A stretch of 64,000 nt of DNA. Origin: an uncultured delta proteobacterium (GTDB lineage: Bacteria; Desulfobacterota; Desulfobacteria; Desulfobacterales; JAFDCJ01). Position 1 is the first letter of the stretch. Each line of letters opens with the position of its first letter. The stretch lies in the NCBI GenBank assembly GCA_963769935.1, contig CAVYNY010000011.1, positions 288,001 to 352,000 on the forward strand, in the 5' to 3' direction. A program made the translations under genes and the position numbers. The notes under the pieces are model-generated. The model was not told where the DNA came from. It made no database searches and was given only the letters and a program-made list of their open reading frames with translations. Below are positions 18,561-44,436 of this stretch, piece after piece.

Positions 18561-19535
18561 TCAGTCGGCAGTTGCCAACGGCCGGAAGGACCAGGTGCCC
18601 CTGAGCAGCGGCAGCAGGCCCGATATTCGGAAATAAATCGGATGCGCGGAAAGCGCCTTGCCTCCCCAGCCCGGAGGGAATCGATACAACAGCTGAATTT
18701 GCCTGTGCTGGCCAGGACCCAGCGGTTCGCCGGAAGCTTTGCAGCAAAAATACAAAAGCTCCGCTTTACGTCCCTGGTCGTCTGCGAGATCGAAAAACCG
18801 CTGCGTTAAATCGAGCAGGATCGGCTGCGCGCTGGTATTGTTCAAAGCGACCATGATGTTGAACGCGTTGTAGTCATGGGAAATCCGGCCGAAAGCCACA
18901 CGTTCCAGGGTCACCACATCCCCGCGATCCTGCGGAAAGGAGGATGCCGGGTCCAGCGAATATTCGGTCCTCTCGATCGCGTTGGGCGGGAAAACCAGAA
19001 TGCTCACGAAATTTGACAACGCTTCTTTTTGCGTGGACGCTTCCTGAGCGATGCCGATGAAGCGGCGAACCGGAGGGTAGAACAAAACGGCCAGGATGAC
19101 CAGCACCGAGGCGGTCGCAGCGACCAGAACGGCGCCGAGCCGCCGAGGCGTCCGGCCCAGGTTTGCGGCGATCTCCGCTGCGGCATTGCCTTGCGGCTCG
19201 AAGATCGTCACCCCTTTGAGGTAGGCAGGGATCGTCTCCATATCCGTGGGCTCGAGCAGCACCGGCAGGACATGCTTCTTGGGGGATGTCCATTTCTCAC
19301 GGGCCAGTCTGAGCTCGCTGAGGCTGTATGCGCCTTGCCGCACGGAGTCCGGCGAGATCAGGAACACGAAAAGGTCGGCTTCTGCGATGCGCGTTCGAAT
19401 CACGGCGTTGAAGTCTTCGCCTCCGGAGAGGTCCGCCTTGTCAAAGAACACCTCATGGCCTTCAGACCGCAGGGCCAGAGCTATTTCTTCGGCCTTCGTG
19501 CGGTTTGTAAAGGAATAAGAAAGAAAAATTTTCAT
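18561..19535 (-). CDS. TIR domain protein with single transmembrane helix and C-terminal extracytoplasmic domain (copy 1)
   Basis: KIFLSYS...VFFD...LSGGEDF...FLISP...YSLSEL...VLPVLL (TIR_2-like), followed by the hydrophobic segment VLVAATASVLVILAVLFY. Confidence 0.88.
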   Translation of the reverse strand: MKIFLSYSFTNRTKAEEIALALRSEGHEVFFDKADLSGGEDFNAVIRTRIAEADLFVFLISPDSVRQGAYSLSELRLAREKWTSPKKHVLPVLLEPTDMETIPAYLKGVTIFEPQGNAAAEIAANLGRTPRRLGAVLVAATASVLVILAVLFYPPVRRFIGIAQEASTQKEALSNFVSILVFPPNAIERTEYSLDPASSFPQDRGDVVTLERVAFGRISHDYNAFNIMVALNNTSAQPILLDLTQRFFDLADDQGRKAELLYFCCKASGEPLGPGQHRQIQLLYRFPPGWGGKALSAHPIYFRISGLLPLLRGTWSFRPLATAD

Positions 19536-19551
19536 AAGAGAACGTCGCCTA

Positions 19552-21138
19552 TTAGTCGCCTTGGGTTGCCTGCTGCCGGGCGATGCGCTTGCGGCTGGGC
19601 AGTATCAGTGCAAAGGGAATGGTGGCCAGGAAAAGCAGTCCCAGTATCCACGACACATCGTTGTAGGCCATCATAGCGGCCTGACGCTTGACCAGGGCAT
19701 TCAGCAAGGCCTGACCGGTTTGCTGCACCGCCGCCGGGTTCAGGCCGGCGTGATCGAGAAGGCCGGCGGCCAGGCGTTGGAAATCGGCCAGGTTGGAGTT
19801 GTACGGCGTGATATGGGACACCAGTTGAACGCGGTGAATTTGCTGACCGCGAGCCACCAGGGTGGCAACCAGGGCATAGCCGATATTGCCCCCGATGCGC
19901 CGGGCCAGGGTGTAAAGGCCGGATGCATCGGTCATGTCGGCGCGGGGGATGGTGCTCAGGGACAAAGTGGTCAGAGTTACGAACATAAAGGGCATACCGA
20001 CACCCATGATCAACAGGGTCGGCACCAGATTCCAGAAGCCGGCCTCCAGCGACAACCGCGCCAGGTCATAGTAGGACCAGCAAGTGACCAGAATGCCGAA
20101 CACCACCAGAACCCGCGCATCCAGGTGACGGTAGAGCCGACCCACAATGGGCATGCAGACCAGCAGCATCACAGCGCGCGGCGCCAGGATCAGTCCGGCC
20201 TGGAAAGCCGGGTAACCCAAAAGTTCCTGGGTAAACTGAGGCAGAATGAAGGTAGTGCCGAACAGGGCGATGCCGAAGATCACCCCCATGAAGGAGCCCA
20301 GACTGAGAGTCAGGTTGCGCAGAATGCGAAAGTTCACCACCGGTTCGCCGATATTCATCTCCCAGTAGATCAGGCCTATAAATGACGCGGCGCAGACCAC
20401 TGCGCCCAGTCGGATCATGTTCGAATCGAACCAGTTTTCCTGCTGGCCGCGCTCCATGACGATTTGCATGCTGGTCAGTGCCACAGCCAGCAAGGCAATG
20501 CCCAGCCAGTCGACTTTTTTGACGCCGCGGCGCAGGTATTGTGGATCGAAGACAAAGGTTGCAACCATCAGTATCCCGACAATGCTCACCGGTACGTTGA
20601 TGTAAAAGATCCAGGGCCAGCCGTAGTGATCCGTGAGCCAGCCGCCCAGGATGGGCCCGATGGCCGGTGCCAGCACCACGCCCATGCCCCATAGCGCCAT
20701 GGCCATGCCTTGCTCTTCCTGGGGGTAAGTTTCGCGCAAAATAGCTTGGGAGACCGGAATCAACGCACCGCCCCCCACACCCTGGATGACCCGGTAGATC
20801 AGCATCTGGGGAAAGCTGGTGGCCGTGCCGCAGAGGATGGAACCCACTGTGAACAGGCAGAAAGATCCCAGATAGAGGCGTTTGCGACCGATCAGGGTGC
20901 TCCACCATCCGGCCATGGTGACCATGATAATTTCCGCGATACTGTAACTGGTGGCGACCCACGTGATCGTCGACAGATCCGTGCTGAAACTGCCCATCAT
21001 GTGGGGCAGCGACACATTGACCACACTGATGTCCATGACGGCCATAAATGCGCCGAACATCACGGCCACCGTGATAAGCCACTTGTTGACCACCGGCGCG
21101 GCCGCAGCCGGCGCTATGGGGGAAGCGGGTCCGTTCAT
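19552..21138 (-). CDS. emrB: DHA2 family MFS efflux permease (EmrB/QacA)
   Basis: MAVMDISVVNVSLP, RVIQGVGGG, APAIGPILGGWL and WPWIFYINVP motifs. Confidence 0.93.
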   Translation of the reverse strand: MNGPASPIAPAAAAPVVNKWLITVAVMFGAFMAVMDISVVNVSLPHMMGSFSTDLSTITWVATSYSIAEIIMVTMAGWWSTLIGRKRLYLGSFCLFTVGSILCGTATSFPQMLIYRVIQGVGGGALIPVSQAILRETYPQEEQGMAMALWGMGVVLAPAIGPILGGWLTDHYGWPWIFYINVPVSIVGILMVATFVFDPQYLRRGVKKVDWLGIALLAVALTSMQIVMERGQQENWFDSNMIRLGAVVCAASFIGLIYWEMNIGEPVVNFRILRNLTLSLGSFMGVIFGIALFGTTFILPQFTQELLGYPAFQAGLILAPRAVMLLVCMPIVGRLYRHLDARVLVVFGILVTCWSYYDLARLSLEAGFWNLVPTLLIMGVGMPFMFVTLTTLSLSTIPRADMTDASGLYTLARRIGGNIGYALVATLVARGQQIHRVQLVSHITPYNSNLADFQRLAAGLLDHAGLNPAAVQQTGQALLNALVKRQAAMMAYNDVSWILGLLFLATIPFALILPSRKRIARQQATQGD

Positions 21139-21155
21139 AGGTTCCAGAATTTATT

Positions 21156-22604
21156 CTATGGTGTTGCGGGCCTTGGATCGGCCTTTTGAACGGCCATGTC
21201 CGCGGCGGCCGCAGACACGTCGGCCTTGACATTGACCTCCGGCTCCACCGACATGCCCGGTACCAATCGAAACTTGGCGAGCTCTTCGGGCCGGTCGAAA
21301 ACAATCTTCACCGGTATGCGCTGAACCACTTTGACGAAGTTGCCGGTGGCATTTTCCGGCGGCAGCAGGCTAAAGCGCGATCCGGTTCCCCGCTGAATGC
21401 TGTCCACCCGGCCATGGAACGTCTCGTCGGGATAGGTATCAACTGAAACCGTGACGGGTTGGCCCGGGCGCATATGCGTCAGCTGGGTTTCCTTGAAATT
21501 GGCCGTCACCCAGACATTGGGGCGCACAATCGCCATCAGGGACTGCCCCACCTGCACAAAAACGCCCGGCTCCACATTTTTCTTGGTTACGTGGCCGGCG
21601 GCCGGGGCATGGATTTTGGTATAGGAGAGGTTCAGGGTGGCTTGCTCGACTTCGGCCCGCGCTTTTTCGGCATCGGCCTTGGAGGCCTCGGCCCGGGAAC
21701 TGCTTTGGGCCACCTGCACGGGTGCGGATCGGGCGGACGTCAACCGGGCGTTGGCCTGTTCCAGCTGCGCCTGCCGGGCGGCTGCCTGGGCCTGCGCCTG
21801 ACGCACATTGTCCTCGGCCGCCTTCTGGGCCGCTTCGGCCCGCTGGAGCAAGGACTGCTGAGTCGCAATTTTGCTGCGGGCGGCATTCAGATCGGCTGCG
21901 GCCATGCGTTCGTCGGTTACGGCATGGTCCAGCTGTTGGGGACTGATGGTGTTGCTCCGGGCCATTTCCCGGTAGCGTTTTAAATCCAGGGAAGCTTGCT
22001 GATATTTGGCTTCCACGGCAAGTGTTTCGGCCTGAGCCTGGTCCAGCGCCGCCTTGGCAAAAGCTACCTGCGCCTGAGCTTCGCCTTGCTGGCTTTTGGC
22101 CGCGGCTGCCAGAGCCCGGGCGTTTTGCACCATAGCCGCAGCCGCTGTCACGGCCTGTTCGGCCTCGGCCAGGCCGGCCGCGGAGGTAATGGAGGTCAGG
22201 TTGACATCGATGTCCCGCGAGCGGCGGGCGGCCTCGGCTGCGTCCAGTGCGGCCCGGGCTGCGTCCAGCCGAGCCTGAAAATCACCCGGATCGAGTTCCA
22301 CCAGCAGGTCGCCGGCCGCAACCTGCTGGTTGTCGGTGACGTGGACCCGGGCCACATGACCCGAAACCCGGGGGCTGATGGAAACGATGTGACCATCGAT
22401 AAAGGCGTCGTCAGTGGATTCGTGGGAAATGGCATACAGGTAGTAGGGAATTCCCACCGCCAGGCCTACCACGGCCAGACCGGCGGCAACCAATGCCAGG
22501 ACGCGGCGGCGGGGTCCCTTGCGCCGGGTTTCATCGCCTTGGGTTGCCTGCTGCGGCTCAATTGCGGAGTCTGTTTTTCCCTGAGAAGTTCTTGATTGTG
22601 CCAT
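21156..22604 (-). CDS. emrA: HlyD/EmrA membrane fusion protein
   Basis: ESTDDAFID, VWVTANFKETQL and FSLLPPENATGNFVKVVQRIPV motifs. Confidence 0.93.
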   Translation of the reverse strand: MAQSRTSQGKTDSAIEPQQATQGDETRRKGPRRRVLALVAAGLAVVGLAVGIPYYLYAISHESTDDAFIDGHIVSISPRVSGHVARVHVTDNQQVAAGDLLVELDPGDFQARLDAARAALDAAEAARRSRDIDVNLTSITSAAGLAEAEQAVTAAAAMVQNARALAAAAKSQQGEAQAQVAFAKAALDQAQAETLAVEAKYQQASLDLKRYREMARSNTISPQQLDHAVTDERMAAADLNAARSKIATQQSLLQRAEAAQKAAEDNVRQAQAQAAARQAQLEQANARLTSARSAPVQVAQSSSRAEASKADAEKARAEVEQATLNLSYTKIHAPAAGHVTKKNVEPGVFVQVGQSLMAIVRPNVWVTANFKETQLTHMRPGQPVTVSVDTYPDETFHGRVDSIQRGTGSRFSLLPPENATGNFVKVVQRIPVKIVFDRPEELAKFRLVPGMSVEPEVNVKADVSAAAADMAVQKADPRPATP

Positions 22605-22664
22605 AATCTGCTCATTTTCAGTTGGTTGCCATACGGCGTGCCGATGCCGAACCTGCGCCGGGCT

Positions 22665-24131
22665 TCACGGCGGATTCGGTGCGCCGGCTATCGTATCCGG
22701 CCCCGCATCCCGGACCGCAGGGTCCCCGCCGTCGGACGGCGGCAAGGGCGTCAGATCGATATCGAGCAGGCCCGCCGCGCGCAATAGTCGCAGGTAGTCC
22801 ACGATGTGATTGAACTGTTCTTCGGTCAGAGCCAGTTCAGCAGACAAAAATTGATCCTGGGCGATGAGACGCTCCAAGTTGGTGCCAAGTCCCGCCCTAT
22901 AGGCCGCATCGGCCTGGCGCAAAGCCTCCCGGGCTGCTGCCTGGCGAATGCCCAGCTGGTCGATCTGCTGCACGTTGGCGATGAGGTTTTCCACAGCCAC
23001 GCGCAGCTCTCGGAGAATTGTGCGGCGTAGCCCGGATTCGGCCAGATTAGCCTGACGCAGGCGGGAGTATGCCGTTCGGACATCGGCGTGCACCAGACCC
23101 GCTGAAAAAATCGGCAGATCGACTTGAATCAACCCTGTCCAGTCCACGTCGTCCGGAAAGCTTTCGCGATAGAGGTAGCGCGTCAAGTTCAGCGACACCG
23201 ATGGGAAATACTCCCCCCAGGCGGCTTCCAGCCGCTCGGCGGCCGCTTTAACCTGCATCCGGGCGGCCTGCAGGTCCTGGCGGTGCGCGTCGGCCAGCGG
23301 CAGCAGTTGATCGGCGGGTCGGTTCTCGCGTGGGACCTCTAGCCTGCCCGTCAGAGCGCCTTCCACGGCCGGGACGCCTATCAGTTGGGCCAGCATGGCC
23401 CGCCCATTGCGCACATCGTTGCGGGCCCGGATCAGGACATTGCGGGTTCCGGCCAGCTGAGCCTCACTCTGGGCCACATCCACGGGACGGGCCACACCCG
23501 CCCGGCGCTGCACATCCATATCGTTCACCCGCTGCTGCTGCACCTGCACCGAGTTTTCCAAGACCTGGACCTGCTTTTCAGATCGCATCACCTGGTAGTA
23601 GGTCTGGGCGACGTCCAGCAGGAGGATGGCTTGGCGATCCAGCAAAAGGTACCGCCGTTGTTCGGCCGAAGAGGCAGCGGCCCACAGAGCGGGCGCATCC
23701 TGAAAAGGGCTTACGTTCAGATTGCCCTGCAGCGGTGCATCCAGCGTTTTCGTGCGCAGAATGCTGGAGACCAGGGAATTGGTGCCGCCCAAAGATGACG
23801 CTTCCTGACGCATATAACTGGGGGCAAAATGAATCGTGGGCAGAAAACGCGCAAACGCGCGGTCCTTCTCGATCAGCGCCTGCAGATAGTATTCGCCGGA
23901 CTCGGCCAATTGCTCGTTGTTGGCGTTGGCCAGCACCACAGCACGCTTCAGGGTCACGGACTCGCCCGCAGAAAAGGGTGCCGGCGGCTGGGTTTGACCG
24001 GCATCCAGCACCTTTCTGTAGGTTTGCACCTCCCGGGCCTGGTCCACGGCACAGCCGGCCGCCAGCAAAAGCGCTATTCCCGCCAGCCATGCCAAACCGT
24101 TACGATTCAACCTTTTTTCCTCCTGATACAA
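22665..24131 (-). CDS. TolC family outer membrane efflux lipoprotein
   Basis: LAAGC lipobox, duplicated OEP-like helical repeats and operon position. Confidence 0.85.
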   Translation of the reverse strand: MYQEEKRLNRNGLAWLAGIALLLAAGCAVDQAREVQTYRKVLDAGQTQPPAPFSAGESVTLKRAVVLANANNEQLAESGEYYLQALIEKDRAFARFLPTIHFAPSYMRQEASSLGGTNSLVSSILRTKTLDAPLQGNLNVSPFQDAPALWAAASSAEQRRYLLLDRQAILLLDVAQTYYQVMRSEKQVQVLENSVQVQQQRVNDMDVQRRAGVARPVDVAQSEAQLAGTRNVLIRARNDVRNGRAMLAQLIGVPAVEGALTGRLEVPRENRPADQLLPLADAHRQDLQAARMQVKAAAERLEAAWGEYFPSVSLNLTRYLYRESFPDDVDWTGLIQVDLPIFSAGLVHADVRTAYSRLRQANLAESGLRRTILRELRVAVENLIANVQQIDQLGIRQAAAREALRQADAAYRAGLGTNLERLIAQDQFLSAELALTEEQFNHIVDYLRLLRAAGLLDIDLTPLPPSDGGDPAVRDAGPDTIAGAPNPP

Positions 24132-24228
24132 TATCCCAAAAGCCCCGCAACGCCATCTCCATTCGCGACCGATTCAGACAAGCCTGCCATCAACAGTTAG
24201 AGGCAATGGTTTTTTCCGGTAGCCGGCT

Positions 24229-24852
24229 TCACCGGGAGCCGCTTCGCATCCTCCTCTGCTGCACGGACGTCCACTTGTTCCGGTGCACCAAGCCTGCCCG
24301 GACAAAGCCGAGAATATGTTCGGTCAGCGTCTGGGAATCGATGCTTTGGTAACCCTCCATCAATACGGAACGTACCAAGCCGGGAATGAAGCGCGCGGTC
24401 AACTCAGGGCGGGGATCGATGAACTCGCCGCCGGCGATGCCGCTGCGGATGATGGATTCGATAAGGACCCTTAGCTCGTTGCGTTTGCCGTCCCACTGAG
24501 CATTGTTGATGACACTGCCCCAAGGCACGCTGCGCATTAATTCGAACATATGGGGGTTCTGATAAGCGAATTCTACCATCTCGCGAATCGCGGCCTCCAG
24601 ATTTTCCATTGGACCGAGCTGGTTTTGATTCAGTCGGCGCTGCATCCGTTCGACCAGTTGGGCGAAGCCGCTGTAAAGCACCGACAGGTAGAGGTCCTCC
24701 TTGTTTTTGAAGTAGATATAGAGTGTACCCTTGCCCACACCGGCCGCTTCGGCCACATCGCTCAGAAGGACCTTGTGGAAGGGATGAGCGGCAAACAACT
24801 CGACCGCCGCGGCCAGGATTTTCATCCGTTTTTGTTCGTCCAACACTTGCAT
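24229..24852 (-). CDS. TetR/AcrR family regulator
   Basis: DVAEAAGVGKGTLYIYFKNKEDL helix-turn-helix. Confidence 0.92.
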   Translation of the reverse strand: MQVLDEQKRMKILAAAVELFAAHPFHKVLLSDVAEAAGVGKGTLYIYFKNKEDLYLSVLYSGFAQLVERMQRRLNQNQLGPMENLEAAIREMVEFAYQNPHMFELMRSVPWGSVINNAQWDGKRNELRVLIESIIRSGIAGGEFIDPRPELTARFIPGLVRSVLMEGYQSIDSQTLTEHILGFVRAGLVHRNKWTSVQQRRMRSGSR

Positions 24853-24892
24853 GGCGGATCTCACGGCAGGCAGTTCAGATACTCCCGCCCTC

Positions 24893-25567
24893 TTAGCCGC
24901 CGGCCCGAGGCGGCGGCGCATCATCGGCTTGTTCCATCAGGCGCTCGGTTAGGGCAACGATCATTGCTTCGGCGGCTTCAAAACCGATCCGGGAAATGTC
25001 GACGGTCAGGTGATAATTGCGCAGATCGTACCAGGAAACGCCGCAAATTTTTTGCACGTAGCGGCGGCGGTCGTTATCCGTGCGATCGATCATTTTTTTG
25101 GCCGCCGCCGGGTCCGGTGCGTGGTAAACCTGCATCACGCGTCCAATGCGAAAGTTGCGTTCGGCGTGAACGAATATGTTGATCAGCCCTGCCCGCCCTT
25201 TGAGGCGATGAAAGGCGCAGCGTCCCAGGATGACACAGGACCCCCGGGCCGCCAGCCTCAAGAGGACCCTGTGCTCGACCGCGATCAATTCATCGTCTGA
25301 AATCAGCCGCAGCGGCGGCGGGCTCTGGATGTCTTCGGGGCAGCCCGTGGCAAAGGTATGCAGGAGCTTGGTCCAGAAGCTCTGGGTGCGTTCTTCCCGC
25401 CGGACCAGTTCTGAGCCGCTGGTGTCCAGCTCTCGGGCGGCCTGCTCCAGGATTTGGTGATCCAGGTAGACAAAACCCAACCGGTGGGCTATCCGCTGGG
25501 CCAGATAGGATCCGCCGCTGCCCAACTGTCGAGCGATGGTGATATGAAAAGGCCGGTCGACAGCCAT
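24893..25567 (-). CDS. Cytidylate kinase-like family protein
   Basis: ITIARQLGSGG, CVILGRCA, DNDRRRY and YHLTVD motifs. Confidence 0.85.
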   Translation of the reverse strand: MAVDRPFHITIARQLGSGGSYLAQRIAHRLGFVYLDHQILEQAARELDTSGSELVRREERTQSFWTKLLHTFATGCPEDIQSPPPLRLISDDELIAVEHRVLLRLAARGSCVILGRCAFHRLKGRAGLINIFVHAERNFRIGRVMQVYHAPDPAAAKKMIDRTDNDRRRYVQKICGVSWYDLRNYHLTVDISRIGFEAAEAMIVALTERLMEQADDAPPPRAGG

Positions 25568-25792
25568 GATGCGCCTCCGAAAAATTACAAACCGGTTTGC
25601 CGGTGTCCAGGCGTAAACGCCATCTTTAGGATCCAGGCCGGTGCTCGGGATGTTCTGAAGTCCTCGGCGCAGCGCTGCTATCCACCGCAGGCAGACGGGC
25701 CGGGCCGGAACACAAATCGGTGTTTTGCGGATGGACACGGCTTAAAAAAACAAAGGCAACCCACTCATTGGTGATTCCGCAAAGCCCCTGTG

Positions 25793-25837
25793 AATACTGA
25801 CCAGCCGGTATTACATGAATCAGCTATCCACTGTCAA
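25793..25837 (-). promoter_or_regulatory. Candidate promoter and TetR operator of the efflux operon
   Basis: TTGACA on the minus strand (25832-25837). An imperfect palindrome AATACTGACCAGCCGGTATT (25793-25812) overlaps the expected -10/start region; the -10 is weak. Confidence 0.35.
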
Positions 25838-26198
25838 GCCATTTCTGCCGTCTGATGGGTGCCGACCCGCACGTACCGTACCATCGTAGCGATCTACGAA
25901 CGCCCCCGTATCGGCTATTTTCTTAGGCTTTTCTGCCTTATCGGCGGGTCTGTCCGGGTGAAGGTCGGCCAAGGACCGACATGTAAGTTGTGAATCGAAT
26001 TCGGCCACCGCTCAATATATGGAAATTCAGATAAACGCCGCGGCCAGCACCCAAATAACCAAAGCGGCTTTTATTGTCAATATTGATTTTTTGCGCGCAC
26101 CTATGGTATTTGCATATATCGCAACTCATAAAAAAACGGTTCTAAAGACCAAAACAAGGCAATCTTTGTCCGAAGATTTAAATTTCAATTATTTTCGG

Positions 26199-26260
26199 GT
26201 AATGGAGTGATGGAGTAATGGCTAAAGGATTGTTATTTTTTTTCAATACTCCAGCACTCC
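26199..26260. repeat. Inverted short tandem arrays (TGGAGTAA-like / ATACTCCA-like)
   Basis: GTAATGGAGTGATGGAGTAATGG ... CAATACTCCAGCACTCC. Confidence 0.55.
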
Positions 26261-26342
26261 CAGATCGAGACTTTCAAAAACTTCTCGCAATGTTAAATCA
26301 CTTTAATTTTATTACTAGTTTTGAAAAGTTATATTCCTCATC

Positions 26343-28885
26343 GTGAAACATCTGAACCCAGATATCCTGCAGCGCGGCCTTCCCGTAGAAGCAGTCCTGG
26401 CGGATTTGCAAAATACTCTGACCGGCAACCCCTGTGCCGTGCTGCAGGCTCCGCCCGGGGCCGGCAAGACAACCGGCATTCCCCTGCACCTGCTCAAGGC
26501 CTCCTGGCTGGAGGAGCGTAAAATCATATTGCTGGCTCCCCGCCGGCTGGCCGCCCGGGCTGCTGCCATACGCATGGCCGACCTTCTCAAGGAAAAAGTC
26601 GGGCAGACGGTCGGCTATCGTGTGCGCCTGGACAGCCGCGTCAGTGCTGCAACCCGCATCGAAGTGGTCACCGAAGGTGTGTTGACGCGAATGCTGCAAA
26701 GTGATCCCTCTTTGGAAGGGGTCGGGTTGGTAATTTTTGATGAGTTTCATGAGCGCAGCCTGGATGCCGATCTGGGATTGGCTTTGTGTCTGGATATGCA
26801 GGGGGTGCTGAATAAAAAGTTGCGGCTGCTGATCATGTCCGCCACCATTGAAACCGAACCGCTGGCTGCCCTGCTGGAAGGCGCCCCGGTGATCGCCTGT
26901 CCGGGCAAAGCGTTTCCGGTTGAAACCCGTTATGTGGGATTGCACACGCCTGTTTTTTCCGGCGAAGCCCTGCGCAATGTTGTGCTGTCCGCGGCCCGCC
27001 ATGAGCCGGGCAGTATTCTGGTGTTTTTACCCGGCGCTGCGGAGATCCGTCAGTTGGCCCGGTTGCTGGAGGCAGCCCTGCCGGGTCCGGATTGGATCAT
27101 TGCCCCACTCTTCGGGAACCTGTCACGCAGCGAACAGGACCGGGCCATTGCACCGCCGCCCGACGGAAAGCGCAAAATCGTCTTGGCCACATCCATCGCT
27201 GAAACCAGTTTGACCATAGAGGACATCCGGGTGGTGGTGGACAGCGGCCTGCAGCGGGTCCCCCGTTTTGATGTGCGCAGCGGGTTGACCCGTCTGATCA
27301 CGCTGCCGGTATCGCGGGCTTCGGCGGACCAGCGGCGGGGGCGGTCCGGGCGAACCGGTCCGGGTGTCTGCCTGCGCCTGTGGTCCCGCAGAATGCATTA
27401 CACACTGCCCGCCGCCCACCGGCCCGAAATTCTCGAGGCCGACCTGGCCGGCCTGGCTCTGGAACTGGCTATCTGGGGTGTGGATGATCCCAACGGTTTA
27501 CGCTGGCTTGATCCGCCGCCTGCCGACACCTTTGACAGCGCCCGCCGATTACTCCGTTCGCTTGAAGCGCTGGACGCCGATGGCCGGGCTACCGATCACG
27601 GGCGGCAGATGGCGGCTTTGCCTTTGCACCCAAGGTTGGCCCACATGCTGGTTGCTGCGAAAGGCCGGGGTCAGGGGGGCGTCGCCTGCGATCTGGCAGC
27701 CTTGCTCAGCGAACGCGACGTGGTCCGTTTTGAACCTGGACGTTCCGATGCCGACATGCGCATTCGCTTCGATCTGCTGCAGGCCTTGCGCAACAAACAA
27801 GCACTGGCCTATCCGGGCGCCACCGTCGATTTTTCCGCCGTTTGCCGGGTACTCCATACGGCAGATAATTTGCGCAGGCGCCTGGGCTGCAAGCGTGGGT
27901 GAAAATGAGGCGCATCCATCGGCCGTTTATTGGCCTGGGCATATCCGGACCGCATTGCCCGCCGTCGTGCAGACGGGCGGGGCCGATTTTTGCTGGCTAA
28001 TGGCCGGGGGGCGTATCTTGATCCTGTTGATGCACTGGCGGCCGAGCAATTTCTGATTGCGGTGGAACTGGACGGTGATCGCCGCAACGCACGAATTTAC
28101 AGAGCCGCGGCCGAGCAGTCATGGATAATCTCATGGAGCAGTTCAAGGATCAGATCCACCCGGTGGAGGCAATTGAGTGGGATGCGGAGCGCCGGATTGT
28201 TGCCGCCCGGCGCGATCTGAAACTGGACGCGCTGACGTTGCGCAGCGATCCGCTTGCGTCTCCCGACGCGCAGCAGGTTTTGGCGGCGCTGTTAAAAGGC
28301 ATCCGGCAGGAGGGGCTCGCGTGTTTGCCGTGGGCCCGGGCCCTGCGGCAGTGGCAGCAACGAGTTTGCTTTTTACGGCGGCTGGCCGAAGATCGGCAGC
28401 AGTGGCCGGATGTCTCGAACGATGGCCTGGCCGCAAACCTGTCGCAATGGCTGGCCCCTTACCTGACCGGAATTACCCGGCTGCGTGATCTGGCCCGGAT
28501 CGACTTAAAAAAAGCGCTGTTCAGCATGCTGCCCTATCGGCAGCATAAACTGCTCGATGAATTGGCCCCCACGCACCTGGCGGTGCCGAGCGGTTCACGG
28601 ATTCCCATTGACTACTCGGGCGATGTACCCGTGCTGGCCGTGCGTCTGCAGGAGATGTTCGGCCTCGTCAAGACGCCGGCGGTGGCCGGCGGCCGTCAGC
28701 CGCTGCTGATCCATCTGCTTTCGCCGGCCGGCCGGCCGGTGCAGATCACACAGGATCTGGCGGGCTTCTGGCAGACCGGCTATCCCGAAGTCAAAAAAGA
28801 ACTCAAAGGCCGCTATCCCAAACACTATTGGCCGGACGATCCCCTGCAGGCGCAGGCGACCGCGCGGGTGAGGCCGCGGGGGTGA
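26343..28885 (+). CDS. hrpB: ATP-dependent helicase HrpB (three apparent indels at about 27897, 27909 and 28118)
   Basis: APPGAGKTT, DEFHER, MSAT, QRRGRSGR, LAWAYPDRIA and C-terminal ELKGRYPKHYWPDDP, spread over three ORF pieces. Confidence 0.92.
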
Positions 28886-29567
28886 GGCCGCGGGGGAGCG
28901 CCTGAATCTTACCCGAGTCATAGCCTTTGACGTGCAGTCACTGAAACTTGGGTCGGACCAAAGAAATTCTTGGCCAGGTGCACGGCGGTCTGATTCGTAA
29001 CGATGCAGCAATAATTATTTAGACAATGAATGGATCCGATTATAATTTTTATTTATAGACAGGATCTAACGGATTTATTGGATTTTTTTTGTTCTTTGTT
29101 TCCGGACTTGCCGCGCCATAGTGCTGTACTACCTGGAGGACGGCGGGATGAACCAAAGAATACCCAATTGCCTTTGGCAAAGCATCCTGCGATGTATGAT
29201 ATGAATTTGTCGGGCGCTGCCTGTCATTTTCCTGTTTTGTCTGATTTTACAGGCACCGCCTGTAGAATAAGGCATGAGCCTAAACAAGTGCTTTATAAGG
29301 CCTTAGAATGCTTTTTTACCGGCGAAAAGATACATTAATCTATGAAAATTCTTGACGAATTTTTAGATAGTAATTAAGCTGACAGGTGTTTTGTCCGAAC
29401 TGAGACGTATCACGCCGGAAGCCAGGGTCTGCTATTCGAAGTTCCATTCACTTCCCAAACCCAAAAGATAGGACGTGACTGGCGGTTCAGAAGGAAACAT
29501 TGATCGATGGCGGAAAGAGACGAGACCTAATGAGGGGTTTTTAAGGGATTCATTAAGGAGAGAATCA

Positions 29568-29864
29568 ATGAAAACAAAGGAACCTGCGACCCTTCTGCAG
29601 GAGAACCTTGCAGTTCTTATGGACCATCACGTCAAAGCCCTTTATCTATTCGGATCAGTTGTTCGCGGCGAGGACAGGCCTGGAAGCGACGTGGACATCC
29701 TGGTTGAATTCCAACCCGAGGCACGGGTAGGCCTGTTCGGCCTGGCCAGGTTACAGCGACGGTTAGCGGAAATCCTTGGCAGACCCGTGGATCTGACGAC
29801 GCCGGACGCTCTACACAAAGCTCTGAAAGATAGAATAATCAAGGAGGCTGTTCGTGCCGCATAG
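29568..29864 (+). CDS. Minimal nucleotidyltransferase (MntA-type antitoxin)
   Basis: LYLFGSVVRGEDRPGSDVDILVEF...LGRPVDL; AAGGAG RBS. Confidence 0.9.
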   Translation: MKTKEPATLLQENLAVLMDHHVKALYLFGSVVRGEDRPGSDVDILVEFQPEARVGLFGLARLQRRLAEILGRPVDLTTPDALHKALKDRIIKEAVRAA

Positions 29865-30000
29865 AGAATGGAAATTTCGGATTCAAGACATATTGGACGC
29901 CATCCGCGCCATTCGGAAATACACAAAAGGGATGGAATTCAAAACCTTCGTCTATGATCGGAGAACAGTGGATGCAGTGGTGCAAACTTGATTATCATTT
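29854..30000 (+). pseudogene. Truncated HepT/DUF86 toxin
   Basis: GTG start overlapping the MNT gene end, encoding MPHREWKFRIQDILDAI..I..YT.GM.F..F..D.RTVDAVV then (shifted) NLIII; similarity stops there. Confidence 0.8.
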
Positions 30001-30099
30001 GATAATAATTTGACACCTGGGTAGAACCTGCTATCATAAAGGCGTCCTATCTTTATAAAAGAGAATCACGGTTGGCTGAAGTCACATAGCTTAGAAAAT

Positions 30100-30654
30100 G
30101 TGGAAGATATTATAGCAGGTTTTTACAGAGACTGCATACGTTTGAATCATTCGATAGCTTCAACTTTTTTCATTATTGACGTTGCAGAAAGTCTTAAGCT
30201 GTCAGGGGTATTGAGCCAGCAGCTGTACGTGGCATTTCAGTTAGCTGCAGAGGCTTGCATGATCCATGACATGACAGAAAACGGAAAATGGACCCATCTT
30301 GATACGAATGATAAAGAGAACGATCACTTTATTGATTGCCGTGATCATGAAAATATCCCCCTTGCCATGTTACTTATCCTTTCTGACGAACTTTCGATTT
30401 GGAGTAGACCTATGTTCGGCAAACCGCAAGTAAGGGATCTCGATTCCGGTATTACACAGTTTTCACACAATGAACGTGCCGCAGCGATTGAGCTATCCAT
30501 CAGTGAAGCTAAATCAAGATTCTGGATTCGTATTGCCGCTGATAAAAATAGGGAGCCGCTTGAAAAGAAATTGAAGAATTTAAAATGTTTCAGAAGAAAA
30601 GGAGCAAAAAGGAATAGCTCTTTTGTTTTAGGTTATGCTTTGGATGTGAGATAG
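30100..30654 (+). CDS. Hypothetical AT-rich protein, probably a C-terminal fragment of an HD-like protein
   Basis: NHSIAS...ACMIHD...PLAMLLILSDELSIWSRP pattern; no clear RBS; in-frame stop at 30037. Confidence 0.4.
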   Translation: MEDIIAGFYRDCIRLNHSIASTFFIIDVAESLKLSGVLSQQLYVAFQLAAEACMIHDMTENGKWTHLDTNDKENDHFIDCRDHENIPLAMLLILSDELSIWSRPMFGKPQVRDLDSGITQFSHNERAAAIELSISEAKSRFWIRIAADKNREPLEKKLKNLKCFRRKGAKRNSSFVLGYALDVR

Positions 30655-30697
30655 CATTCTCCTTAAGCGCCTCTAAACAGACACAATAGGATATTAT

Positions 30698-31111
30698 GGG
30701 ACGTTCCTCGGATCTCGGATCCGTCCTCTTCCAAAAGCTTCAATCAGTGATCCTCGACGATTTGCCATCCTCTCTCGCGGATTCGCTCGCCATCGAGGAC
30801 GCGATGTTTAATTTTTTCGATATTGAGACCGCGCTCATCTCTAGTTCTCCCGCCCTCCAAATAACATAGCAGGCTCCGGACCTGTACCATTCTTCGTTGC
30901 TTTCCGCCTGTCAATAACTCCTTGAAAGTAAGACCGAATAAACCGAAAAATCATCACGGTCAGCATCATCTAAAAAGATCTTTCTTCGATTAATCTCCCT
31001 CACAATGATATGGTGCAGCGCTCCAAGGGCGTCTATACGGGCTTTTCGAGGCATGCCATTCAGGTATCAAATAATTCGGATTTGGTAAACCGTAAATCCG
31101 AGGAACGTCCC
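30698..31111 (-). mobile_element. Non-autonomous element with 16-bp terminal inverted repeats and a deleted RAYT/IS200-like transposase
   Basis: GGGACGTTCCTCGGAT (30698-30713) and ATCCGAGGAACGTCCC (31096-31111). The minus strand from 31054 reads MPRKARIDALGALHHIIVREINRRKIF, joined to an HTH-like C-terminal remnant. Confidence 0.8.
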
Positions 31112-31196
31112 TTAAAGCCTATAGCCCGCGGCCTTCGCAAGAAAAGCGTCAAGTTCGGCCTGGGTTAGACGTCGCTGCGGTTTAGTTTTCACAGAA

Positions 31197-32203
31197 TTAT
31201 TCATTTTCACTCACATATATTTGTTGACGGCCTATTGATTTTTTCCTAAACTCCCGCACATTCAACGCCTTCCATTCGAGCAGCGGGTGCCTTCTGATAC
31301 GATCCTGCAAATCCTCATCGGCCGTCAATAATTCTGGGCGGACTTCACCCCTTGTCCAACAATCGATCCAGGAATTCCATTTCCGTCGCCGTGAAAGGGA
31401 GCAATGCCGCCAGGCCATGAAGACAGTCGTTGATGAGTCTTTTTTTAAAAGAAGCGGCGCTTATTGGGTCTGCACCTTCTGAGCGCAACATCGGAAGGAG
31501 CTTTTGTTCGAAATCCTTGATTTCCAGGTCACATCCTCTATGGCGACAGTCCGCCAATTCCTTTGATCCATAGCGCCATAGAGGACAAACGCCAAACGCA
31601 GCCGCCCCGGCTGAAGCGTGCCGGTGCGGAAAAGATGGCTGCAATCGAATAGATCCCTTGCCTGCTTTCGCGAAAGAAGCGCTGCGAGTTTTCCCGCCGC
31701 TAGTTCATGGATATCCAGCACCTGAATGTCAGTTGCCTGCCAAACGCCGACCGGCCGCGAGACCATGACCCTCAGGCGGCCACAAGGGGATACGGAACAT
31801 AAAGTTGACATCTACTTCAAGGATGCCCCCTTGCCCGCTCGCACCCTGATAGCGAAGCTGCCATTTCCCACCGGCATGTTCGCCGGGCATGCGCCTGACT
31901 GTAAACTCTTCACGGGAGAATACCGCCTGCAACGCCGTCTCGACCTTGGGGCGTTCCGCAAGCATGACCTCTCGATCAGACGCACCCACATAATTCAGAT
32001 CGATATCGATCGAAAGTCGGGGCACCTCAAAGATAAAAAGGTTCACGGCCGTACCGCCCTTCAGGGCCAGCCGCCCTTTCAGGAAAGGATGACTTCGCAC
32101 GGCTTCGAGCAGGTGAACCAGAAGTCCGACTTTTTCCAGAATATCCGTTCGGAAACCTGTAGCCTCTGCCTGAGCGATCAGCGTTTCAGGAGGATATCCT
32201 CAC
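31197..32203 (-). CDS. abiEii: AbiEii nucleotidyltransferase toxin (type IV TA), split by about four single-base indels
   Basis: LKGGTAVNLF...PRLSIDIDLNY and ELAAGKLAALLSRKQARDLFD, across ORFs 31729-32100, 31461-31811, 31345-31644 and 31197-31418. Confidence 0.85.
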
Positions 32204-33003
32204 CACGATTCCTCCCATGACCGCCGGAGGATTTCTTCGGGAACAACCAGGTTCCAGGCGGAGACGAAGCGACCCGATTGCCGTCGGCTTCGCTCCATGT
32301 AGTGGGGTCGGCGCGGGCGAAGATCCTGGAATGTCTTTAAATGGGCGTCTTCAACCATCAGGGATTCCCGGTGCTGTTCTAGGAAAAAACCCACTTTCGC
32401 AGCGTTAGTGGCGTTTCCAAAAGTAATGTGTATTCCGTGACCTTATCGAGATCGAAATATTCAATTGTCTCCAAGGACCGCCATATTTCTTCCCAGCTTC
32501 CTGACAATTCAGGACGGTTCAGGACATCTACGAAGGTTCTCTCAAGTCCGGTTAAGCATATTGCCATTCCCGAACGATCGGCTTCCATCACGTCAAAAGA
32601 TTCCGCTTTCTTTCGCAAGAGGGCCTTTGGAAATCTAACCCCTTTGAACAAATGAGAGCGAAAAGTTATGAGGGGCATGGGTTTGCCGACGAGGTAAGTG
32701 AAGTGTTCATATACCGAATAGGCCTTTCCATGAACTTCCAGCGCCGTATGGTAAGCCAGAATTGCATCTTTCGATATTCGGGCGGCTATAAGAAATGGGT
32801 CTATGGGAAAGTTTTCCGGCGATGCGCCGGGAGGAACAGATGCATAGAGCCCACGACGATCTGGACAAGATTACCCGCTTTTACATGGTAGGCAAGGAAA
32901 GATTCCTGGGTCTTACGTTATGGGTTCCATCGGAAGAGAGAAATCCGGCAAAGTCCTGGACGGTAAAAACAGGATGTGTGCGGAAAAAAGCCCTCAGTTG
33001 CAT
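32200..33003 (-). CDS. abiEi: AbiEi antitoxin/transcriptional regulator, split by about three single-base indels
   Basis: MQLRAFFRTHPVFTV...GLY...LAYHTALEVHG...LERTFVDVLNRPELSG...KVGFFLE...WNLVVP; its stop overlaps the abiEii start. Confidence 0.82.
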
Positions 33004-33031
33004 TATTGGATCACTTTTGACAGTTATCTTT

Positions 33032-33106
33032 ATAATACGTAATTTTATCACCACCAATTTTGCCATAACCCGCAATTTTTTTACGTGTTATTAAAATAAT
33101 TGTCAA
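33032..33106 (-). promoter_or_regulatory. Candidate abiE promoter with inverted-repeat operator
   Basis: TTGACA on the minus strand at 33101-33106; inverted repeat ATAATACGTAA (33032-33042) / TTACGTGTTAT (33081-33091), 10 of 11 matching. Confidence 0.4.
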
Positions 33107-33250
33107 GACGGCGTTTAGATGCAAATTAGCTGAAAATTGGGGGCCTTAGACTTAGAACTCCTGTCTGCCGGAGGCTGGTTTATCAAAAAACGCTTCAGCG
33201 CATGGGTAGTCAGCGGGGAGGTAGACGGGCCACGTCAAGAAATTTAGATT

Positions 33251-33291
33251 AAATAACAAATGGACCGGTTAGGTCTTAGCCGGTCCATTTG
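33251..33291 (-). terminator. Intrinsic terminator after the Mo-hydroxylase operon
   Basis: Perfect 12-bp stem CAAATGGACCGG/CCGGTCCATTTG followed by TTATTT on the minus strand. Confidence 0.7.
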
Positions 33292-33309
33292 GGGGGCAAC
33301 ATCAGCCTT

Positions 33310-35727: not shown

Positions 35728-35765
35728 GGTCTCTTTTCCATTGTTTGCGCCGCAGATGTACCGGC

Positions 35766-36236
35766 TCAATCACCGGCATTTTCTACAGCGGCCTTAACGG
35801 AGCGGATGATCTGCTGATATCCGGTGCAGCGGCACAGCACGCCGGACAATGCTGCTTGGATTTCCTGTTCGTCCGGGTTGGGGTTTTCCTGCAAAAGCTC
35901 CGTGGCCGCCATGAGCATTCCCGGGGTGCAGAAGCCGCACTGCAGCCCGAAGTTGTCCCGGAAAGCCTTCTGCAGTGCATTCAGCCGGCCGCCCGAGGCG
36001 AGTCCTTCGACGGTCACAATTTCGGCATTGTCGGCCTGCACGGCGAATATCAGACAGGAGCGGACGGTGCGGCCGTTCATCAGGATCGTGCAGCTGCCGC
36101 ACCTGCCATGCTCGCAGCCGATGTGGGTGCCGGCAAGATTAAGATCTTCCCGCAAAAAATCAACCAGAAGCATTCGCGCCTCCACCTCTTTCCGATACTC
36201 CACGCCGTTGACCCGCACCCTGATTTCATGTCGCAT
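35766..36236 (-). CDS. (2Fe-2S) small subunit, CoxS/HmfC-like
   Basis: GCEHGRCGSC, QCGFCTPG and LCRCTGY motifs. Confidence 0.93.
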   Translation of the reverse strand: MRHEIRVRVNGVEYRKEVEARMLLVDFLREDLNLAGTHIGCEHGRCGSCTILMNGRTVRSCLIFAVQADNAEIVTVEGLASGGRLNALQKAFRDNFGLQCGFCTPGMLMAATELLQENPNPDEQEIQAALSGVLCRCTGYQQIIRSVKAAVENAGD

Positions 36237-36237
36237 T

Positions 36238-37110
36238 TTACGCCAGCCTCCCTTGCCCGACGGCCGCCTTCACGGCGCGTTCCAGGTAGACCTTTGCCAT
36301 CTCCTGTTTGTATCCAGCCGGTGCCTGCAGTTCATCGGACGGCCGCAGGACGGCTGCCGATGCGACGGCCGCCTCCCGGATCAAGTCCGCGGTCGGCACC
36401 TGCCCGCTGAGCAGGTCCTCCGCCTCGCGACAGCGCAAAGGCGTCCTCCCGGCCCCGGCGACGGCGATGCGAACTTCCGCGCAGCGCTTATTTTCATCCA
36501 AGGTGATCAGAGCGGCGACGCCGACGGTGGCGGTCGTGCTATAGCCCCGGCTGTGCTCCAGAAAAGACCAGCGCTGGTTGGACGACAGGGCCGGCAAGCG
36601 AACTTCGGTGAGGATCTCATCCGGCCCCAAGGCGGTGGTACAGGTGTCCACGAATAAATCTTCCGCCTTGATCTGCCGCGAACCCCGGGGTCCCCGGACT
36701 GTGACCTCGCCGTCTGCGGCCAGCAGCACGGCCGGGTACTCCGCCGACGGATCCGCATGGGCAAGGCTGCCGCCGATGGTGCCCCGGTTGCGGACGGCCC
36801 GGTAACCGATATAGCGGGTCGCTTCCGCCAGAATCGGGCATTTTGCCGCGATCAATTCGGACTTCTCGATTTCGGTCTGCCGAACCATGGCACCGATGCA
36901 GACAGTACCCGCATTTTCACGGAGGTACCTCAAATCCTCGAGGTGGTTGATATCGATGAGGTATGCGGGCCGGGCCTGGCGGAAATTCATCAACGGCACA
37001 AGGCTCTGGCCCCCGGCCAGAATCCTGGCCCCCGGCTGGTAGCGGTCCAGCATCGCCAGCGCTTCATCTACCGTCGCAGGCTGAAAGTATTGAAAAGGAG
37101 CCGGTTTCAT
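36238..37110 (-). CDS. FAD-binding medium subunit, CoxM/HmfB-like
   Basis: MKPAPF, LAGGQSLVP and RNRGTIGGSLAHADP motifs. Confidence 0.93.
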   Translation of the reverse strand: MKPAPFQYFQPATVDEALAMLDRYQPGARILAGGQSLVPLMNFRQARPAYLIDINHLEDLRYLRENAGTVCIGAMVRQTEIEKSELIAAKCPILAEATRYIGYRAVRNRGTIGGSLAHADPSAEYPAVLLAADGEVTVRGPRGSRQIKAEDLFVDTCTTALGPDEILTEVRLPALSSNQRWSFLEHSRGYSTTATVGVAALITLDENKRCAEVRIAVAGAGRTPLRCREAEDLLSGQVPTADLIREAAVASAAVLRPSDELQAPAGYKQEMAKVYLERAVKAAVGQGRLA

Positions 37111-37541
37111 CAGTCTTCCTCCATCGAAGGGACCCGGATCGGGAACCCGTTCCGATAAGAATTGACAAAAACCCGCAAATTAGGAGAGAGCTAAGAGAAA
37201 ATATGAATTGTGCATCGGATTCAGCTACAATGCAACCAAGGAAAGCTTAAAATAACCGTAAACGCTGGGGCTTCGTCTATCAAAATAACGTATCACTGTC
37301 AACGGTTAAATTCGGACAGGCTCTGAAATTTTCTTGACAATTAGCCGTCAGCCAACTCTATCAGCTTATAAAATCTTCTCGCCCAATTGACGTGGCGGCA
37401 GCCTCCGGTGCGAATCCGACCGGCGAGCGCGGTGGTGTGTCCACAACGCCGGGTTCAAGAGTTCGGTTAAGCTGCGGGTACGAACATACGCATGGTGACG
37501 GAAGTCCGGGTGTGAGGCCCGCCGGTGCGATTCCGCAATCT

Positions 37542-38516
37542 TCAGTCGGCAGTTGCCAGCGGCCGGAATGACCACGTGCCCCTGAGCAGCGGCAGCAAGC
37601 CCGATATCTTAAAATAAATCATGTGCGCGGAAAGCGTCTTGCCTTCCCAGCCCGGCAGGGACCGGTACAGCAGCTGAATTTGCCTCTGCTGGCCCGGACC
37701 CAGCGGTTCGCCGGAAGCCTTGCAGCAAAAATACAACAGCTCCGCCTTGCGACCCCGGTCATCTTCAAGATCGAAAAACCGCTGCGACAAATCGAGCAGG
37801 ATCGGCTGCGCGGTGGTGTTGGTCACGGCGACCCTAATGTCGAACGCGTTGTAGTCATGGGAGACCCGGCCGAAGGCCACACGTTCCAGGGTCACCACAT
37901 CCCCGCGATCCTGCGGGAATGAGGAACCGGGGTCCAGAGAATATTCGGTCCTCTCGATCATGTTCGGCCTGAAAACCAGGATGTCCACGAAATTTGACAA
38001 TGCCTGCTTTTGCATTACCGCTTCCTGGCCGCCGCCGATGAAGCGGCGGACCGGCGTATAAAACAAAACGGCGAGGATGACCAGCACCGCAGCGGTCGCC
38101 GCGATCAGAACGACGCGGAACCGCCGGGGCGAGCGGCCCAGGTGCGCGGCGATCTCCGCCGCCGCATTGCCCTGCGGCTCGAAGATTGTCACCCCTTTGA
38201 GATAGGCAGGAATCGTCTCCATCTCCGTGGGTTCGAGCAGCACCGGCAGGACATGCTTCTTGGGGGATGTCCATTTCTCACGGGCCAGTCTGAGCTCGCT
38301 GAGGCTGTATGCGCCCTGCCGCACGGCATCCGGCGAGATCAGGAACACGAAAAGGTCGGCGTCTGCGATGCGCGTTCGAATCACGGCGTTGAAGTCTTCA
38401 CCGCCGGAGAGCTTGTCTTTGTCGAAGAACACCTCATGGCCTTCTGCCTGCAGCGCCAGAGCGATTTCTTCGGCCTTCGTGCGGTTTTTAGAGGAATAGG
38501 AAAGAAAAATCTTCAT
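37542..38516 (-). CDS. TIR domain protein with transmembrane helix and C-terminal extracytoplasmic domain (copy 2)
   Basis: Ungapped 324-aa paralogue of 18561-19535 (about 42 differences by manual count). Confidence 0.88.
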   Translation of the reverse strand: MKIFLSYSSKNRTKAEEIALALQAEGHEVFFDKDKLSGGEDFNAVIRTRIADADLFVFLISPDAVRQGAYSLSELRLAREKWTSPKKHVLPVLLEPTEMETIPAYLKGVTIFEPQGNAAAEIAAHLGRSPRRFRVVLIAATAAVLVILAVLFYTPVRRFIGGGQEAVMQKQALSNFVDILVFRPNMIERTEYSLDPGSSFPQDRGDVVTLERVAFGRVSHDYNAFDIRVAVTNTTAQPILLDLSQRFFDLEDDRGRKAELLYFCCKASGEPLGPGQQRQIQLLYRSLPGWEGKTLSAHMIYFKISGLLPLLRGTWSFRPLATAD

Positions 38517-41714: not shown

Positions 41715-41721
41715 AGTTCAA

Positions 41722-41868: not shown

Positions 41869-41869
41869 G

Positions 41870-42154: not shown

Positions 42155-42193
42155 GGGCCAACCGGCAACGGGCCAACCGGCGAACCAGATTCC

Positions 42194-43372: not shown

Positions 43373-43403
43373 TTCTCTAAGTCATCAAGTCAAGCAGAAT
43401 AAG

Positions 43404-44401: not shown

Positions 44402-44436
44402 TGACGTGCTTCAATTTCCGAGATGAACACATAAAA

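Follow-up and report, generated by a model that had tools for sequence, protein, structure and literature searches.

The window analysed here, a 64,000-nt stretch of the genome of an uncultured delta proteobacterium (Desulfobacterales, JAFDCJ01; assembly GCA_963769935.1, contig CAVYNY010000011.1, positions 288,001 to 352,000), encodes two closely related proteins of 324 amino acids (aa), copy A (P0001) and copy B (P0002). Each consists of an N-terminal TIR domain, a single predicted transmembrane (TM) helix and a predicted extracytoplasmic β-sandwich of immunoglobulin (Ig)-like fold. The duplication itself is ordinary and matters little; the new part of these proteins is the C-terminal 150 aa. 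What is new is an unnamed outer module that is tied to recognised immune heads, together with a TIR subfamily that is almost always membrane-tethered. There is, in our estimation, about an even chance that these proteins act as stand-alone conflict (anti-invader) receptors, by analogy with characterised systems, in which clustering of the outer domain on a cue would switch on the NADase activity of the TIR domain.

Domain architecture and relatives of the TIR-TM-Ig proteins

The N-terminal part of both proteins matches Pfam TIR_2 (PF13676) over residues 3-104/108 (E = 4e-19 for copy A and 1e-19 for copy B), and the scores of 69.7 and 71.5 bits, against a gathering cut-off of 28, place both in this family. 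In Foldseek comparisons, the TIR domain of copy A resembles AbTir 7uxu with a TM score by target of 0.79, and phmmer connects it with AbTir 7uxr at E = 0.002. The glutamate of the YSLSEL motif, to which an earlier note on this DNA had drawn attention, is present in both copies as Glu74. It is found in 43 of 43 TIR-fused members, all of which likewise have an aromatic residue at position 70 (Tyr in 41, Phe in 2). We matched Y70 and E74 to W204 and E208 of AbTir by motif spacing; the phmmer alignment to 7uxr is gapped there. An aromatic residue at the position four before the Glu has been reported for all 12 cyclising TIRs (bioRxiv 2022.05.07.491051). By analogy, the product of the window proteins would be either plain ADP-ribose (ADPR) or a cyclic ADPR isomer, Tyr70 being compatible with cyclisation.

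A single hydrophobic segment at about residues 133-153, with Kyte-Doolittle values of 2.7-2.9 in both copies, corresponds to the one TM helix described in the earlier note. The AlphaFold2 (AF2) model, based on 43 homologues, comprises a TIR fold, a helix at residues 135-152 and a β-domain at residues 176-317 (mean pLDDT 80, pTM 0.48). There is no signal peptide, and the TIR domain is N-terminal. Lys and Arg are commoner before the TM helix in 70 of the 76 relatives with a single TM; in 2 they are less common there, and in 4 the two sides are equal. Because of this bias the TIR domain is predicted to lie inside and the Ig-like domain outside the membrane. The predicted topology is therefore single-pass, N-in/C-out, in agreement with the cytoplasmic TIR and outer C-terminal domain that had been proposed.

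The structure prediction that the earlier note had recommended for the C-terminal domain yielded, for the outer domain of copy A alone, an Ig-like β-sandwich with pLDDT 89 and pTM 0.86, in line with the β-rich character claimed for it. In VIA, the best solved structures are YcdA, a lipoprotein of B. subtilis, and GspB (Z 8.0 each; for YcdA, rmsd 3.6 with 110 aligned residues); YjhA and MPT63 have Z scores of 7.6 and 6.6, respectively. YcdA, YjhA and MPT63 are presumably DUF4352 relatives. The top BFVD matches are phage or viral proteins labelled DUF4352/DUF5067 (E = 3e-4, TM score 0.48), and Atlas scores for the outer domain are under 0.9. An hhalign comparison of the family profile with six DUF4352 matches aligned the central motif with P = 5e-4 and a probability of 31%, a score that none of 40 column shuffles attained. 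Sequence searches of the PDB with the outer domain gave no match (best E 0.24), nor did Foldseek give a PDB match at E <= 0.001, and the DUF4352 profile itself has no match in the host genome (G000). Judging from these profiles and models, the outer domain appears to be DUF4352-like without being a DUF4352 member, and the kinship is distant.

The vicinal cysteines of the YFCC motif, also mentioned in the earlier note, are Cys264 and Cys265, the only cysteines in the window copies. This Cys-Cys pair is invariant in 97 aligned relatives, is present in 57 of 74 more distant domains and is the sole Cys pair per domain. Among the distant relatives, it is kept in all 19 of those with TIR, EAD, CHAT or trypsin heads versus 21 of 37 others, counts that come from relatives that are not independent of each other.

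Relatives of the outer domain numbered 47 in a single-query search (41 with TIR_2) and 97 by profile. A full HMMER search gave 101 clusters at 50% identity, 81 of them at E <= 1e-10, with repeat-like false matches among the weakest rows of the 101; it found outer-domain forms of 397-2000 aa, of which an insensitive word-index search had found none. Heads were scanned in 59 of the 92 new 50%-cluster representatives, chosen for having an N-terminal part. They comprised TIR_2 (6), EAD1 (5), EAD7 (5), CHAT (2), trypsin (1), a PT repeat only (1) and no Pfam family (39). Among the unnamed heads are short TM anchors with Pro/Thr linkers, anchors of two to three TM segments, and a helical hairpin of Chloroflexota. 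The hairpin head (P0076, P0092, P0093 and P0068, mostly from Chloroflexota) belongs to no Pfam family and is EAD-like in use. Of the 56 distant relatives in which the N-terminal part exceeds 60 residues, 53 have a TM segment ahead of the outer domain, and the domain is almost always C-terminal. No histidine kinase, GGDEF, helix-turn-helix or chemoreceptor output was found among the 59 distant relatives or among 57 closer proteins, and in none of the 59 does the domain follow a housekeeping output. EADs, caspase-family and trypsin peptidases and TIRs are described as modules of conflict systems by Kaur et al. (PMC7159879, PMC8195603), so the repeated fusion of the outer domain to EAD1, EAD7, CHAT and TIR lends support to a role in conflict or defence.

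In a tree of 52 TIR rows (this and the outer-domain tree are quick trees), all 20 Ig-fused TIRs fall on a single branch (SH-aLRT 99), which lies inside a subfamily characterised by an IPAYL motif; 10 further TIRs from the host genome are placed outside that subfamily. The outer domains of the TIR fusions likewise form one branch (SH-aLRT 99), so the fusion of TIR and outer domain is stable. In the outer-domain tree, the main TIR branch does not include every TIR fusion, at least P0084 being placed elsewhere. Among the matches listed, 44 metagenome loci (in the series L021-L070) out of 63 match the TIR domain only and not the outer domain. Of these 44 loci, 38 have a TM segment before residue 200, a proportion that may be biased by their having been chosen by a motif near the TM. 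In the 24 of the 44 that were scanned, the domains after the TM are FGE-sulfatase, TPR or Pfam-unnamed ones, including β-domains; two further TIR-only loci have CHAT, a later TM and LysM. The IPAYL subfamily looks like a receptor repertoire.

The host genome is rich in TIR proteins in general, with 24 TIR_2 matches (22 over the cut-off) as compared with 0-12 in 22 congeners, i.e. twice the highest congener. Two TIR paralogues are therefore not unusual in themselves. Under a stricter threshold, a TM follows the TIR domain in 8 of the 24 TIR_2 proteins. Among the 24 are a protein that joins a TIR to an acyl-carrier domain (L079) and the TIR-TM-X proteins L076, L078, L080 and L082. Kinship of the outer domain with the outer repeats of L080 found no support (hhalign probability 0.1%).

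Candidate function and competing explanations

If the proteins are conflict receptors, the outer domain would cluster on a cue outside the membrane, as does, by analogy, the DUF4352 domain of Mpr. Clustering would bring the cytoplasmic TIR domains together across the single TM helix, and the gathered TIRs would then cleave NAD+, with a dependence on self-association like that of AbTir and SARM1. Three considerations suggest such outside-in activation. Bacterial TIR NADases are reported to need self-association, supplied by other domains (bioRxiv 10.1101/2022.05.07.491051). Mpr consists of a short N-terminus, a TM, a linker and a periplasmic DUF4352 domain, which forms oligomers and on which phage resistance depends (PMC12596739, PMC9262609). 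Lastly, the recognised heads attached to the outer domain are conflict modules. Searches of the host genome, which is 96.7% complete, gave no match to STALD, ThsA_Macro or SIR2_2, the first two profiles lacking a working control and other effector types falling outside the search. Because no Thoeris-type effector was found with these three profiles, direct depletion of NAD+ is slightly, and weakly, preferred to signal relay.

A more specific proposal, which we put forward tentatively and hold to be distinctly less probable than the general one, is that the Cys-Cys Ig-like domain is a dedicated cell-surface immune sensor that signals to interchangeable TIR, EAD and caspase-like heads. The cue in the periplasm would come from a phage, in the form of a tail or DNA-injection component such as has been proposed for Mpr, or from contact with a predator; phage escapes Mpr through a tail protein (PMC12596739). 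If this is true, the window proteins would be a bacterial counterpart of the interleukin-1 receptor (IL-1R), representing one specificity in a large mix-and-match repertoire of TIR-TM-X receptors.

Several observations weigh against the conflict-receptor reading. Two thirds of the distant relatives of the outer domain have no recognised cytoplasmic output, and a TIR or CHAT neighbour was found in only 3 of the 11 TIR-fused loci examined (L010, L012 and L016 among L010-L020), many of which are short. The copies sit beside efflux and SOS genes, outside any defence island. With regard to the likeness to DUF4352, the VIA Z scores lie in the range of common Ig arrangements, and the window proteins have no DUF4352 (PF11611) Pfam match, the best relatives reaching some 15 bits where 25.9 are required. 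Conservation of the outer domain is high (0.76 versus 0.78 for the TIR domain), whereas a sensor engaged in an arms race might diversify. Finally, more than 70% of all TIRs are reported to have the catalytic-position Glu, whose presence does not correlate with activity (PMC7075850), and in vitro activity was seen in only 28 of 152 gut TIRs (PMC9092222).

The poor predictive value of the Glu (PMC7075850, PMC9092222) also speaks for the strongest of the competing explanations, which we consider unlikely. According to it, the TIR domain is a non-enzymatic or weakly enzymatic adaptor, and the clustered receptor recruits TIR-fused effectors encoded elsewhere through TIR-TIR contacts, as proposed for EADs. 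In 10 of the 59 scanned proteins, the outer domain does indeed follow EAD1 or EAD7, both of them non-enzymatic adaptors, and the large number of TIR_2 matches in the host genome would provide candidate partners. However, E74 and the aromatic residue at position 70 are invariant, and the 10 other host TIRs placed in the tree fall outside the subfamily, whereas the partners of EADs are said to be closely related, lineage-specific paralogues (PMC7159879).

Somewhat less likely still is a sensor of redox state, metal or envelope stress, in which the Cys-Cys pair, as a vicinal or inter-subunit disulfide or a metal site, would cluster the TIR domains. The invariance of this sole Cys pair and its retention in all 19 distant relatives with TIR, EAD, CHAT or trypsin heads are consistent with such a role, as is the position of copy A after efflux genes and of copy B after an SOS cassette. 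Neither neighbourhood is conserved across the family, however, no stress-regulator output is fused to the outer domain, and a plain structural disulfide accounts for the Cys-Cys equally well.

We regard as improbable a third alternative, in which the membrane tether restrains the TIR domain and proteolysis frees a toxic, active TIR, as speculated for amoeba TirC. TirC is tolerated when tethered and lethal when untethered in amoebae (PMC13142454), and the outer domain occurs also with CHAT and trypsin peptidases. On the other hand, the existence of a TIR-only deletion allele (L018, P0106; see below), whose TIR domain shows a dN/dS of 0.09 in comparison with copy B, suggests that a free TIR is tolerated, although the deletion may be recent or unexpressed.

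The two copies, their neighbourhoods and distribution

As described in the earlier note, the two 324-aa open reading frames (ORFs) lie on the same strand and align without gaps, with 282 of 324 aa (87.0%) and 859 of 975 nt identical. The claim that their similarity is bounded by the start and stop codons also proved correct. In a self-BLAST of the window the similarity runs from the ATG to 3 nt past the stop codon (18558-19535 versus 37539-38516, 88.1%), and the flanks of copies A and B are mutually unrelated. A comparison of the copies gave dS 0.34, dN 0.07 and dN/dS 0.21 (bootstrap 95% confidence interval 0.14-0.32), with dN/dS values of 0.16 for the TIR and 0.19 for the C-terminal domain. 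Both copies are under purifying selection and are kept intact, as had been supposed. The copy-bearing stretch at 17-44.5 kb is GC-rich (0.576 versus a genome 5-kb mean of 0.513, standard deviation 0.037). The closest named homologue, P0010, comes from a Desulfobacterales bacterium and is 85% identical. The features of the window are listed in Table 1.

Table 1. Positions of the two TIR genes, their parts and adjacent gene groups in the window
Feature	Position	Strand	Evidence
Copy A (P0001), TIR-TM-Ig-like, 324 aa	18561..19535	minus	ORF and Pfam scan
Copy B (P0002), layout as copy A, 324 aa	37542..38516	minus	ORF and Pfam scan; syntenic orthologue in L011
Copy A TIR domain, residues about 1-126	19158..19535	minus	Pfam TIR_2, AF2 model, Foldseek to AbTir 7uxu
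Copy A Y70-x-x-x-E74 motif (aromatic and catalytic-position Glu)	19314..19328	minus	Conservation in 43 TIR-fused members
Copy A predicted TM helix, residues about 133-153; Arg-rich N-terminal side	19077..19139	minus	Hydropathy and AF2
Copy A predicted extracytoplasmic Ig-like β-sandwich, residues 175-324, unnamed, DUF4352-like	18564..19013	minus	AF2, fold searches, hhalign
Copy A Cys264-Cys265	18741..18746	minus	Invariant in 97-sequence alignment A3
Copy B Y70-x-x-x-E74 motif	38295..38309	minus	Sequence and alignment of 43 members
Copy B predicted TM helix, residues about 135-153	38058..38114	minus	Hydropathy
Copy B Ig-like outer domain with Cys264-Cys265	37545..37994	minus	Sequence comparison
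TetR, OEP, HlyD, MFS efflux genes; end 16 nt upstream of copy A; not a conserved partner	19552..24924	minus	Pfam
lexA, DUF72, dinB-like, dnaE-type polymerase cassette; ends 189 nt upstream of copy B	38706..45151	minus	Pfam

In the metagenome locus L011, the same polymerase cassette as at copy B is followed by a TIR gene and then by dehydrogenase genes; this TIR gene is identical to copy B at 915 and to copy A at 849 of 975 nt. The upstream context in another metagenome locus, L018, is that of copy B. No syntenic orthologue of copy A was seen among the loci examined. In the tree built from 103 outer domains, the nearest relatives of copy A are P0003/P0005 (support 92), and those of copy B are P0008/P0009 (support 90). 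The synteny of copy B and the separate nearest relatives of each copy point to paralogues that separated some time ago, or to genes acquired separately from close kin. It is very hard to believe, despite a listed contamination of 5.4% for the host genome, that the copies are an assembly chimera of strain variants, which the earlier note had named as a possible refutation, or neutral passengers, given their unrelated flanks, the recurrence of the neighbours of copy B in L011 and L018, its closer match to L011 than to copy A, the separate nearest relatives and the dS and dN/dS values given above.

A natural in-frame deletion allele joins an intact TIR domain to the last 26 aa of the protein (L018:6254-6709, also P0106), the TM and the Ig domain having been lost at a short direct repeat. 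It is represented by two distinct sequences, those of L018 and P0106, which are identical at 146 of 151 positions; in L018 it occupies the copy-B slot.

No effector gene adjoins either copy, the neighbours being efflux, flavin reductase, xanthine-dehydrogenase-like and polymerase genes, and no partner gene is conserved across the 11 TIR-fused loci L010-L020, so the neighbourhood analysis confirmed that an adjacent partner effector is lacking. PADLOC, a check that had also been suggested, and NCBIfam profiles gave only weak matches limited to the TIR domain, e.g. ThsB and ThcB4. A link of copy A to the efflux genes was rejected because neither of the two homologous efflux sites in G013 is followed by a TIR gene. 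Co-regulation of copy B by SOS was considered: the linkage exists in the window, L011 and L018, but the gene is missing from this slot in 12 of 12 congeners examined, the L011 spacer differs, and no pattern of a promoter or terminator was found there. Read-through from the polymerase cassette into copy B is possible. The cassette itself is matched in 18 of 22 congeners, and the slot downstream is occupied by unrelated genes in all 12 examined. In L141 (G008), the slot holds small gene pairs resembling toxin-antitoxin modules, as judged by eye. Repeat-like insertions in the intergenic spaces of the cassette (38706-45151) differ from genome to genome, and a short tandem array lies just upstream of the polymerase gene. 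Elsewhere in the window, the HrpB helicase (26343-28885) is divided between two ORFs; compared with G022, small indels occur near 27896-27910 and 28110-28118. Between copies A and B, a low-GC patch (29475-31811) contains, at 29475-29864, an MntA-like nucleotidyltransferase, then an unnamed ORF of 184 aa and, at 31461-31811, a truncated AbiEii fragment.

The outer domain occurs in exactly two copies in the host genome. The full gene was not found in the 22 congeners or in 18 other members of the order, all matches in these being limited to the TIR domain. Nor was it found in two overlapping samples of 400 genomes each, one drawn from the order and one from the phylum, many of the sampled genomes being incomplete. 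The single locus obtained from GTDB by a pattern scan belongs to a Gemmatimonadota genome (L010). No relative was found among the plasmids and phages searched, and none of 126 pattern matches in IMG/VR was confirmed as a relative. The gene behaves as a solo accessory insert with a patchy distribution. The Gemmatimonadota homologue is surrounded by an island (L010:291-16969, G411) that encodes a 1757-aa DUF7379/CHAT/TPR-S protein and CARDB-TIR, metallo-β-lactamase-fold and TIR-like proteins. In L020, the homologue breaks off within the Ig domain, and a matching C-terminal part is found in L071 beside a serine recombinase gene, which suggests disruption by a mobile element.

Relation to known systems

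Bacterial TIR defence proteins are not described, in the literature consulted, as trans-membrane receptors with an outer sensor. A compact TIR-TM-Ig protein makes outside-in reception by a bacterial TIR testable with E74, Cys-Cys and outer-domain deletion variants. Natural matched controls are available in the form of the 87%-identical paralogues, the TIR-only deletion allele, the outer domain on EAD, CHAT or head-less anchors, and the TIR domain on TPR, FGE-sulfatase or other outer domains.

The window proteins share the TIR_2 fold, the aromatic-x-x-x-Glu motif and the possible single-gene organisation with the bacterial TIR NADases AbTir and BtTir and with E. coli TIR-I to TIR-IX (Wang et al. 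2024, PMC11350192), to which they add a predicted single-pass anchor and outward Ig-like domain. TIR systems with TM domains have been reported, and some Toll-like receptor (TLR) features seem, according to the same source, to be absent from the bacterial TIR systems studied (PMC11350192). With Thoeris (types I-XI; bioRxiv 10.64898/2025.12.03.692087) they share a TIR domain with the catalytic-position Glu, the weak ThsB and ThcB4 matches covering the TIR only. In contrast to Thoeris, there is no linked gene for a signal-binding effector, and the TIR domain is predicted to be membrane-tethered with an outer domain.

In the conflict systems of Kaur et al. 2020/2021 (PMC7159879, PMC8195603), EAD1, EAD7, CHAT, trypsin and TIR are fused via a TM to variable extracellular domains, and the outer domain of the window proteins is likewise combined interchangeably with EAD, caspase-like and trypsin heads. 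Unlike those systems, the window genes have no core MoxR, GTPase or EACC component nearby, and no core NTPase or constant component was found among the 52 window ORFs scanned. The text consulted of Kaur et al. does not name the outer domain, and the literature searched contained no description of it or of the protein family; the supplements of those papers could list the architecture. Of the earlier suggestion of a possible undescribed single-gene system, the solo gene without a conserved partner stands, but the proteins belong to a broad TIR-TM-X repertoire and are not unique.

Mpr of Mycobacterium smegmatis (PMC9262609, PMC12596739) is similar in its type II membrane layout, with a single TM and a C-terminal, outward DUF4352-like domain, the topology of the window proteins being predicted. 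Its layout is matched closely by family members with a short N-terminus, a TM and a Pro/Thr linker, such as P0052. However, the likeness in fold and profile is distant and below the Pfam cut-off, the Cys-Cys pair is specific to the outer-domain family, and Mpr has no TIR domain and is reported as a non-abortive nuclease.

The earlier note had called the proteins a Toll-like sensor. The predicted single-pass architecture with a TIR domain agrees with this, but the outer domain is Ig-like, which is nearer to the layout of IL-1R, and the topology is inverted. IL-1R and TLRs have one TM and a cytosolic TIR, and IL-1R also has extracellular Ig-like domains (PMC7075850). In the window proteins, however, the domain order is reversed, with an N-terminal TIR and no signal peptide, in place of the type I topology of those receptors; their Ig-like domain belongs to another lineage, and there are no leucine-rich repeats. 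The likeness to IL-1R, as far as predicted architecture goes, is one of layout by analogy and not of membership.

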